Source of the DNA: Octopus vulgaris
Lineage: Eukaryota
NCBI GenBank assembly: GCA_951406725.2
Contig: OX597814.1
Location: forward strand, 88,846,001-88,910,000
Reading direction: 5' to 3'
DNA: 64,000 nt
The notes below the pieces were generated by a model. That model searched no databases and was not told the DNA's origin. It saw only the letters and a list, made by a program, of their open reading frames with translations. Numbering within the stretch: position 1 is the first letter of the stretch; every line of letters starts with the position of its first letter. The position numbers and the translations under genes were made by a program. Positions 4,013 to 63,032 of this stretch are shown one piece after another.

Positions 4013-7000
4013 GTAATTGCATATTTCTTACAGCAATATTTTTAATTGCTTTTGTTGTTATATATAAGGTGCATTGCAGAAGTGTTGAAACATTTTCAGG
4101 AGAGGCATTTGTTAATTTCAAAGAAGTGCAAAACTCTAATTTCAATCAAAGTAGGATCCTCTGATTTTGTGAGGGCCCCATGGAAGTCCTTCAAAGTGAA
4201 GGTATCCAGAACCCTTGTCACAGTTTCATTGATCTTCAAAACGACTGTTCCCGAGATTCTCTTTCAGTCTGGAGAACAACCAGAAGTCACAGGGAGCAAA
4301 GTCCCAACTGTAGGGAGGGTTATGGATTGTTTTGATACCTATCTCTGACAATTGTGGGTTACAGGATGGAATTGTGACAAACAGTGTTTAGGAGGGTGTG
4401 CTTAAAGTACTGTTACAGCTGTCTCCTTCAATTTGGAATAACAAAAGTTCGTAGGTCAGCTTATTAGATTAAAGTAATAATATACTAAAATTACAATAAT
4501 CTAAGACATTTGTTACATGATCAGAGGTGTTCCAGCCATGACCATCTCACCTTTTTTTCAGACTATGTTTAGAATTCATTATCCAATGTATCTTTCCTTT
4601 ATCTAAGTTGTTAGAGTGAGATTTGAAGGTGTGTTGCTATTGTTTCTAGCAGGTTGAGCAACTATCTAAGCATTCCTTCAGCTTGTTATCATTGTTCTCA
4701 AAGAATTGGAATTGTGAGCTATATCTAAATATTTGCTAATATGTTCCAGATTTTTAGTTGGGAGAAACCTCCAGCAAATTCTAAACAAATGCTCTACATA
4801 TCGTATGGAGCAAGATAACGTTTGATAATCTCCAGTCTTAACTAGTACTTTTATTTTTTGCATCACTGAACTAGTTTTCCAAGTTTTGGCTCCTTTTCAA
4901 AATTCTACAACAATTTCTGCAATGATAATTAGATTATCAACAGGATAACTGAGTGGTCTAAGGCACCAGACTCAAAGATAATATCCTTAACCAGAACAAT
5001 GAGTATTCTGATCCACAACTGTGGACATGGGCTTGAATCCCACTTCAGACAAGCATTCTTTTATAGGTTTGACAACTGATGTTGGTATGTTTATGTCCCT
5101 GTAACTTAGCAGTTTGGCAAAAGAAACTGATAGAATAAGTTCCAGGCTTACAAAGAATAAGTCCTGGGGTTGATTTTTTTAACTAAACTCTTTAAGGTGG
5201 TGTTCCAGCATGGCCACAATCAAATGACTGAAACAAGTAAAAGAATATAAGTGTTCACAAACTGTTCACTGGAGTGGCTGTGTGGTAAGAGATTTGCTTC
5301 CCAACCACATGGTCCTGGGTTCAGTCCCACTGCACAACATCTTGGGCAACCATAGTCTTGCAAGTGGATTTAATAGATGGAAACTGAAAGAAGCCTGTTG
5401 TATGTATCTGTGTGTGTGTTTGTCCCCCACCACTGCTTGACAGCAAGTGTTGATGTGTTTACAACCCCATGAGTTAGTGTTCGGTAAAAGAATGCGAGAA
5501 TGAGTTCTATGGTTGATTTGTTCAACTAAAACTCTTCAAGGTTGTACTCCAGCATGGCCACAGTCTAATGACTGAAACAAGTAAAAGATGAAGAAAGTGG
5601 TTTGTTGAATGATCTAAACTGAACATTCACTTGTCCATTAAATTCCTTAGTAAATTAACTGTCAATTCTGCCTGGCTTGCTATATGCCTATAAAAGATTT
5701 TGACTTGCCTTAAGAAATTATACTTTCTTTTTATTCAGTTATTTATTTATATGTTTATATATATTTATTTTATTAATTTCATTTAAATACAGGTTAGAGA
5801 AAATGGCTGAAAATCTGGTACCTATATTCACAGCTAAGCAGTCAATGTCATCCTTGAAAACTGTGGACAAGATCATAGATGCCTTGCAAAATATGGAAGG
5901 AGAAGATATTGAGGATATTCTGAGTAAATTAATTTATGAAATATTTTGTGGATTTTTTACATATGCAATTATCTAAACACACACACAAAATACACATGCA
6001 CATGCACACACACACACACACACATACACACACATATACATACACACACATGCACATCCATAATTATATATATATGTATGTATATATATATATATATATA
6101 TATATATATATATATATATATATATATATACATGTGGAGGCACATGACCTAGTGGTTAGAGCAGCAGACTCGCGGTCGAGGGATCGCGGGTTCGAATCTA
6201 AGACCGGGCGCTATGTATGTTTATGAATGAAACACCTAAGCTCCACGTGGCTCCAGCAGAAGATAATGGCGAATTTCTGCTGACTCTTTCACCGCAACTT
6301 TCTCTCACTCTTTCCTCCTGCATCTTGCAACTCACCTGCGATGGACTGGCGTCCTGTCCAAGTGAGGAACCTATATACCAAAGAAACCAGGAAACTGGTC
6401 CTTATGGCTCAAGAAGGAACAAACATATATATACATAGGCACATGTCTGTGAGGTAAGAAGCTTACATCTCAATCACCTGGTTCCAGGGTCAGTCCCATT
6501 GCATGGGACCTTGGGCAGGTGTCGTCTACTATAGCCTCTGGCCGACCAAACCCTTGTGAGTGGATTTGGTAGATGGAAACTGAAAGAAGTTCATCATTTT
6601 TGATTCTCTCTCTGTTTATTTCCTTGTGCTCCTTTCTGTTGAAGAGTGTAGGTTCAAAACATAAGACTTTCACACATTACAAAGATGTTAAACTAAGGCA
6701 TCTGTTTGTTATTTCTACACCTGTCTTCATCTTTTGTTTTTCTGTAAATTTCAGCTATATATGTATGTTTATATATATATTTATATATATATATATATAT
6801 ATATATATATATATACATTCATATATATATACATATACATACATATATATATATACATACATACATATATATATATATATATATATATATACATATACAT
6901 ATATATATATATATATATACATACATACATATATGTATATCATCATCATCATCATCATTTAGCATCTGCTTTCCATGCTAGCATGGGTTGGATGGTTCAA

Positions 7001-63032: not shown

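Follow-up and report, generated by a model that had tools for sequence, protein, structure and literature searches.

Within the ABCA family, ABCA12 is the glucosylceramide loader of lamellar granules, and this protein, its relatives ABCA1, ABCA4 and ABCA13 and insect ldd are the closest described systems for the gene considered here. In the accessible parts of the respective sources, a tunnel route for lipid has been described for ABCA1 (PMC9381790), the lid of ABCA4 has been described as hollow (PMC7932691), lipid has been located near the lid of ABCA2 (10.64898/2026.08.25.746927) and a C75-C324 bond has been placed at the base of ABCA4 (PMC8501128). The ABCA4 lid itself (residues 138-271) is, according to the available portions of three reports, not resolved by cryo-EM (10.64898/2026.06.25.734683; PMC8501128; PMC7932691). 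It has also been reported, in the accessible text of a further source, that large ABCA12 and ABCA13 ectodomains are already known, and a title in its reference list indicates that the extra length of ABCA13 is encoded partly by a 4.8-kb exon (PMC13161189). The long N-terminal region of ABCA13 is needed for cholesterol uptake into vesicles and, as far as the available part of the same paper goes, the oversized ABCA12 and ABCA13 ectodomains are described there as lacking any known homology (PMC7948424). Among insects, the available part of one study shows that neurons of the fly require CG34120 to pass lipid on to glia (10.1101/2021.03.03.433580).

The Octopus vulgaris ABCA gene described here, with a predicted product of ~7,200 residues, resembles ABCA4 and ABCA1 in its domain order and in its base cysteines, and the module of its ectodomain can be aligned with the distal ECD1 and the lid of both; exon sizes of 66, 94, 198, 140 and 117 nt are common to the octopus gene and ABCA4. 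On the other hand, ABCA4 and ABCA1 have one lid within an ECD1 of ~600 aa, whereas the octopus protein has 25 modules in ~5,600 aa. Vertebrate ABCA13 (~5,050 aa) also has a giant ECD1, carries one lid and falls, along with ABCA12, in the same clade, but it shows no detectable repeats and has its 4.8-kb exon, whereas the extra length of the octopus protein is spread over 95 exons of 62-233 nt. With an ECD1 enlarged by a repeat array of small exons rather than by giant exons, the octopus gene is not ABCA13 proper. Vertebrate ABCA12 shares the clade and an enlarged ECD1, although its fish representatives, unlike the 25-module octopus protein, gave no match to a lid profile (0/2 rows). The sawfly protein named ldd belongs to the same invertebrate clade and has four detectable modules, but is shorter (4,101 aa), sits on a long branch and has more decayed repeats; insect ldd is presumably CG34120.

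The window, that is, the whole 64-kb stretch of DNA that was analysed, lies inside this gene, whose predicted span is ~305 kb, ~230 kb of it past the window. The initial annotation had recognized in the window 21 exons, A to U, in which the intron phases cycle 2-1, 1-0, 0-0, 0-2, and a scan of splice sites and open frames recovered all of them on the + strand, with AG/GT ends and with the frame kept on joining (Table 1). The module lengths given previously (220 aa for the first module, and those of Table 1 for the next four) were reproduced, exons C and G are indeed 131 nt each, and the eight cysteines of exons B-U all lie within the four 0-0 exons, two in each. The stated range 5793..63032 begins with exon B, and exon A lies upstream of that start. 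At least five modules and the start of a sixth had been counted; the repeat was upheld, and the array was found to go on well beyond them, to 25 modules.

Table 1. Exons and modules of the octopus ABCA gene in and next to the window (positions are those of the window)
Feature	Position	Strand	Description
ATG exon			66 nt, ~9.7 kb upstream of window
TM1 exon			94 nt, ~0.6 kb upstream of window
Exon A, ABCA signature exon	3886..4012	+	127 nt, phase 1-2; Cys54/75/81
Module 1 exon a (B)	5793..5923	+	2-1; helices that ascend; resembles ABCA4 exon 4
Module 1 exon b (C)	11843..11973	+	1-0; lid core first half; like ABCA4 exon 5
Module 1 exon c (D)	14735..14932	+	0-0, 198 nt; lid core and Cys pair; like ABCA4 exon 6 (198 nt; C205/C230)
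Module 1 exon d (E)	17408..17607	+	0-2; amphipathic linker; gives module phase symmetry
Module 2 (221 aa)	22309..28283	+	exons 22309-22457, 24661-24791, 27343-27558, 28117-28283
Module 3 (165 aa), without Cys exon	30816..35452	+	exons 30816-30955, 33428-33549, 35220-35452
Module 4 (200 aa)	38918..48154	+	exons 38918-39027, 43553-43647, 44660-44842, 47943-48154
Module 5 (218 aa)	49942..59924	+	exons 49942-50084, 51673-51785, 56062-56256, 59722-59924
Module 6 exon a (U)	62896..63032	+	modules 6-25 continue beyond window, followed by rest of gene (loci L004-L027)

The introns of the window also contain other elements: broken reverse-transcriptase-like ORFs at 8055-8938 (+) and 21239-22162 (-), which are taken to be of LINE type; broken transposase remnants at 28568-29598 (-), 61745-62032 (+) and 63225-63677 (+), which are presumably Tc1/mariner-like; and a G+C-rich tandem-repeat block at 18866-21210 with several hundred bases per unit.

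Beyond the window, the gene model was extended on 400 kb of flanking DNA. Exon modelling there indicated that ECD1 is filled by an array of 25 modules, 95 exons and ~5,200 aa, which reaches ~180 kb past the window, to position 243,956 of the extended window, and which comprises 25 a, 25 b, 21 c and 24 d exons; exon c is missing from modules 3, 20, 22 and 23 and exon d from module 25. The repeat is symmetric, with phase 2 at both module ends in 24 of the 25 modules, while module 25 ends in phase 0. From TM1 to the ECD1 base the model joins 102 exons through 101 junctions, all of them in frame and canonical, with zero stops in 5,572 aa, and it has no hydropathy peak above 1.5 other than TM1, in agreement with the earlier remark that over 1100 aa pass without another TM segment. 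Cysteines are confined almost entirely to the c exons, which hold 43 of the 47 in the array, 20-33 residues apart. The array is followed by the ECD1 base, in which one exon matches ABCA1 354-396 (E 3e-5), and by TMD1, NBD1, ECD2, TMD2 and NBD2, with the last exon at ~295,733 in extended coordinates. The order of a full transporter, TM1-ECD1-TM2-6-NBD1-RD1-TM7-ECD2-TM8-12-NBD2-RD2, was traced by hydropathy and motifs in protein record P0082 and mapped exon by exon onto the DNA; Walker A, signature, Walker B and H-loop motifs were each found in both NBDs, and the domain listing of P0082 includes PF00005, PF12698 and PF23321. A candidate exon at 252,200 was out of phase and was excluded. A neighbouring gene, presumably EEPD1-like, has exons at L031:6369-7076 (+) in which helix-hairpin-helix-like motifs were observed.

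As a control for chance, a single candidate filter, which recovered 93 of the 103 listed exons, returned 27, 30, 17 and 16 candidates of the four exon classes in the array (238 kb) versus 3, 1, 0 and 0 in 144 kb beyond the gene. A genome search with exon D, in which seven candidates were scored, recovered that exon alone. The model is nearly identical to proteins named as those of Octopus. Its junctions are shared with predicted gene models of other octopuses, 99 of 101 with O. sinensis record P0080 and 51 of 101 with the partial O. bimaculoides record P0085; P0082 shares 100 of 101, but may annotate the same locus and was left out as independent evidence. In addition, eight ORFs of relatives, 4,595-6,516 aa long, occupy 92-98% of single 15-20 kb contigs and would appear to represent spliced transcripts.

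The nature of the module was addressed with a profile of exon A and module 1 built from 35 invertebrate rows, which matched ABCA4 53-262 without large gaps (E 1.2e-32) and ABCA1 53-237 (E 8.4e-15). The cysteine pair of the octopus module aligns to ABCA4 C205/C230 and ABCA1 C195/C215, and exons b and c map inside ABCA4 138-271. The ABCA4 exon sizes that can be taken from variant names in the available part of one source are 66, 94, 142, 140, 128, 198, 90, 241, 140 and 117 nt (PMC7544654), and those of the octopus gene are 66, 94 and 127 nt, then medians of 140, 131 and 198 for a, b and c and, after the array, 140 and 117, with phases as in ABCA4; ABCA4 exons 3-6 have phases 1-2, 2-1, 1-0 and 0-0, the same as exon A followed by a, b and c. 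The next exon of ABCA4 is 0-0, whereas octopus exon d is 0-2 and has no ABCA4 counterpart of the same phase, and it is because of this exon that the cassette is phase-2 symmetric and hence duplicable. Judged by sequence comparison, the module corresponds to the distal part of ECD1 in ABCA4 and ABCA1. The initial annotation had proposed a serially duplicated tunnel/lid unit, and these profile matches, phases and sizes bear it out for the distal segment but not for the whole tunnel, as the conserved core consists of the lid and two helical arms. Human ABCA7 matches the profile to residue 143 only, which suggests that most of its lid core has been lost.

Pfam holds no family for the module (0/35 rows above the curated cut-off), a profile of the Cys exon alone found nothing below E 2 among PDB sequences, a homologue search with the single exon L gave no match among 68 candidates, and Atlas searches gave no usable match. 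PF26955 was rejected as the module family, since it is likewise listed for ABCA3-type rows that have no module and is likely something else. With AlphaFold2, the lid core (exons b and c) was predicted as a compact unit, with pLDDT 93-97 in 9/10 blocks over residues 91-190. In a structural model of modules 24-25, the helices of exons d and a bundle between two well-predicted lids, but the overall pTM is 0.32. Foldseek returned nothing at E <0.001 with either model, and the best VIA Z scores in fold comparison were 6.7, 8.5 (generic helices) and 3.8. No ABCA chain was listed in the fold searches with both models, which is no evidence either way; the solved ABCA4 lid is poly-Ala or unmodelled.

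The mutual similarity of modules proved uneven. In all-versus-all alignment, z >= 6 was reached by 71 of the 300 pairs that the complete array allows, but among modules 1-5, on which the initial annotation was based, only one pair in ten did so (M1-M2, z 6.8). A leave-one-out profile test gave 19 of the 25 modules that beat 100 shuffles, with modules 2, 3 and 20-23 failing to do so. Since only this one pair passes and modules 2 and 3 fail against shuffles, the case within the window is carried by the phase and cysteine patterns. The internal modules are highly divergent (~20% identity); modules 6 and 8-18 group closely together, module 1 has its best match in module 25 and vice versa (z 17), and modules 7 and 19 pair (z 19). 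The lid profiles of modules 1, 24 and 25 match one another with a probability of 99.1-99.8%, the profile of the internal Cys exons detects lid 1 with 87% probability, and the cysteine pair is invariant in all 19 aligned c exons. Given that 6/25 modules fail against shuffles and 4/25 have no Cys exon, some units may not be working lids.

Copy number appears to be still moving in one octopod hot spot, the region of modules 13-16 (L010-L015, ~126,000-187,000 of the extended window). This region holds four units here, three of which are 11.5 kb long and ~96% identical in DNA, versus two in O. sinensis, four in O. bimaculoides, of which two are only ~53% like the O. vulgaris units, and at least 11 in the argonaut.

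The initial annotation knew of no description of this exon-module architecture, and no account of the lid repeat or of the exon cassette was found in the literature searched, which covered few subscription journals. The architecture is not octopus-specific. Many-copy relatives with copies ~226 aa apart occur in molluscs, annelids, nemerteans, a brachiopod, chelicerates, echinoderms and hemichordates, and giant invertebrate ABCA proteins are already in the databases, mostly as 'uncharacterized'. A profile of 19 octopus c exons matched 46 proteins, 17 of them in several stretches, and the 20 that were looked up by name included argonaut, cuttlefish, bivalves, annelid, nemertean, horseshoe crab, sea cucumber, crinoids and acorn worms; one match, P0013, had no BLAST match to the model and was discarded as a false positive. 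A search with the transporter core yielded 66 proteins of 2,929-9,321 aa. With an iterated profile, at least five copies were found in 47 of 49 invertebrate rows and at least nine in 40, with a median spacing of 226 aa, a count that is partly circular and whose rows are not independent species; 485 of 619 module spacings fell within 190-260 aa. An octopus-only profile still gave three or more matches in 34 of 44 non-cephalopod rows, and 209 matches versus 0 on reversed sequences.

The vertebrate proteins gave a different picture. Fish ABCA1 has one copy in each of three rows and ABCA13-type proteins have one lid in 10/10 rows (lid 1 profile), ~240 aa before the base, while ABCA3 has no lid copy (0/2 rows). 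Three lid profiles and self-alignment revealed no repeats beyond one lid in ABCA12 and ABCA13, so that the comparison with these proteins, which had been put forward as a means of confirming the repeat, did not do so. A quick tree search on 30 rows, which was rooted on four ABCA3-type rows and from which one hemichordate row was dropped, placed the invertebrate giants and ABCA12/13 in one clade (SH-aLRT 99), with the sawfly protein among the invertebrate giants and the octopus protein outside the ABCA1 clade; this holds for a sampling without ABCA2, ABCA4, ABCA7 and normal-sized invertebrate ABCA proteins, and an earlier tree without outgroup was not used as a basis for the clade. Taken over the animals sampled, the lid-repeat architecture appears to be old and widespread.

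Several observations on individual relatives can be added. In Ptychodera flava, P0002 (an N-terminal piece with 27 modules) and P0100 (a C-terminal piece with 14 modules) may be halves of one gene of ~41 modules and >11,000 aa. A C-type lectin domain occurs in starfish and acorn-worm giants and a WAP domain in a crinoid (P0071, P0072, P0073, P0016, P0008). The fish ABCA12 records P0102 and P0106, of 4,484 and 5,669 aa, have several cysteine pairs ~24 residues apart, possibly eroded modules that the profiles do not detect.

With regard to function, the reading that is tentatively preferred is that of an ABCA12/13-branch lipid pump with a predicted tethered, multivalent lipid acceptor in the form of an array of 25 lids. 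In evolutionary terms, a 0-2 exon would have arisen behind the ancestral 2-1, 1-0, 0-0 trio, giving a phase-2 symmetric cassette that could expand and contract by unequal crossing over. Each cassette would provide, from exons b and c, a disulfide-pinned, glycosylated lid globule, and neighbouring globules would be joined by the amphipathic helices of exon d and the next exon a; amphipathicity exceeds that of shuffles in 12/24 d, 9/25 b, 6/25 a and 1/21 c exons. C75 of exon A and C5263, which follows module 25, are invariant in the alignments and homologous to ABCA4 C75-C324, and for this reason the array is likely to be a closed loop with both ends on the base, probably arranged as a crown or a folded string of lids over one tunnel. 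ATP would then likely drive lipid up this single tunnel into the lid array, which would store it or hand it on in the vesicle lumen or outside the cell. A lipid role of the array is a prediction that draws on the amphipathic exons and, indirectly, on the hollow ABCA4 lid, the lipid near the ABCA2 lid, the ABCA1 tunnel route, the requirement of ABCA13 for its N-terminal region and the part of fly CG34120 in lipid transfer, all cited above; amphipathic helices would also fit plain helical bundles. The lipid-storage ectodomain proposed in the initial annotation is a plausible one.

This preferred reading was placed ahead of three others. It is possible, though unlikely, that the array serves mainly as a structural or targeting scaffold, a large, acidic spacer with heavy glycosylation that determines the geometry of vesicles or of the extracellular space or that binds partner proteins, with only the base-proximal lid handling lipid. 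Such a spacer would suit the 105 N-glycosylation sequons of the array (54 +/- 6 in shuffles), its net charge of -158, a copy number that, within a single octopod hot spot, ranges freely from two modules to 11 or more, and the lectin or WAP domains found in the same region of some relatives, and ABCA13 without its N-terminal region has been reported to mislocalise, in the accessible part of the source (PMC7948424). However, a cysteine pair kept in every aligned c exon and a period of ~226 aa maintained across phyla both go beyond what a spacer would require. The initial annotation had instead envisaged an extended, telescoping conduit, in which the modules, each a ring of amphipathic helices, would stack head to tail into a long continuous path by which lipid could cross a broad space outside the cell or in a lumen. 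The helical arms in each module align with the ABCA4 distal segment 101-300, half of the d exons are amphipathic and the two-module model has its d and a helices between the lids, all of which would suit such a tube; yet the chain probably returns to the base from which it starts, so that a tube would need an out-and-back path, no symmetric pair other than modules 1 and 25 consists of best matches, the rest of the tunnel and the base sequence occur once, and the two-module model gives no confident stacking. The telescoping conduit was therefore not sustained and is considered quite improbable.

Least probable, and indeed very unlikely, is that the gene does not yield the giant protein of the model, but rather small, alternatively spliced subsets of modules, or that part of the array is an artefact of prediction or assembly. 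Phase-symmetric cassettes could be skipped in frame, many isoforms are listed for several relatives, the modelled exon 12c is absent from P0082 and two modules from P0080, and the near-identity of the three 11.5-kb units might be read in the same way. Against this stand the unbroken series of canonical junctions, the eight long ORFs on single contigs and full-length records of 5,300-7,400 aa in several phyla, while a divergence of 4% among the three copies would fit real duplication better than haplotype duplication.

A broader extension of the pump with a tethered acceptor, which is speculative and rather improbable, would be that the ancestral bilaterian ABCA12/13 had an apolipoprotein built in, as a crown of 10-40 lids that could expand, was filled by the pump beneath and needed no soluble acceptor to assemble lipid particles or lamellae. 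In that case the ABCA lid would be a lipid-binding domain in its own right, and human ABCA13 would retain, in its N-terminal region of 3,000 residues, an eroded descendant of such a crown.

The lid is the least understood part of the disease-linked pumps ABCA1 and ABCA4, and in the available part of one report 52 variants of uncertain significance are assigned to that of ABCA4 (10.64898/2026.06.25.734683). Being copied up to 27 times in one protein, the lid behaves as an independent domain, which suggests a small soluble construct for work on its structure and lipid binding, and the hundreds of diverged lid homologues lend themselves to alignment and variant scoring. In conclusion, the lid array defines a family of transporters of 5,000-7,400 residues and suggests, in a form open to test, where the very large ABCA12 and ABCA13 ectodomains may have come from.
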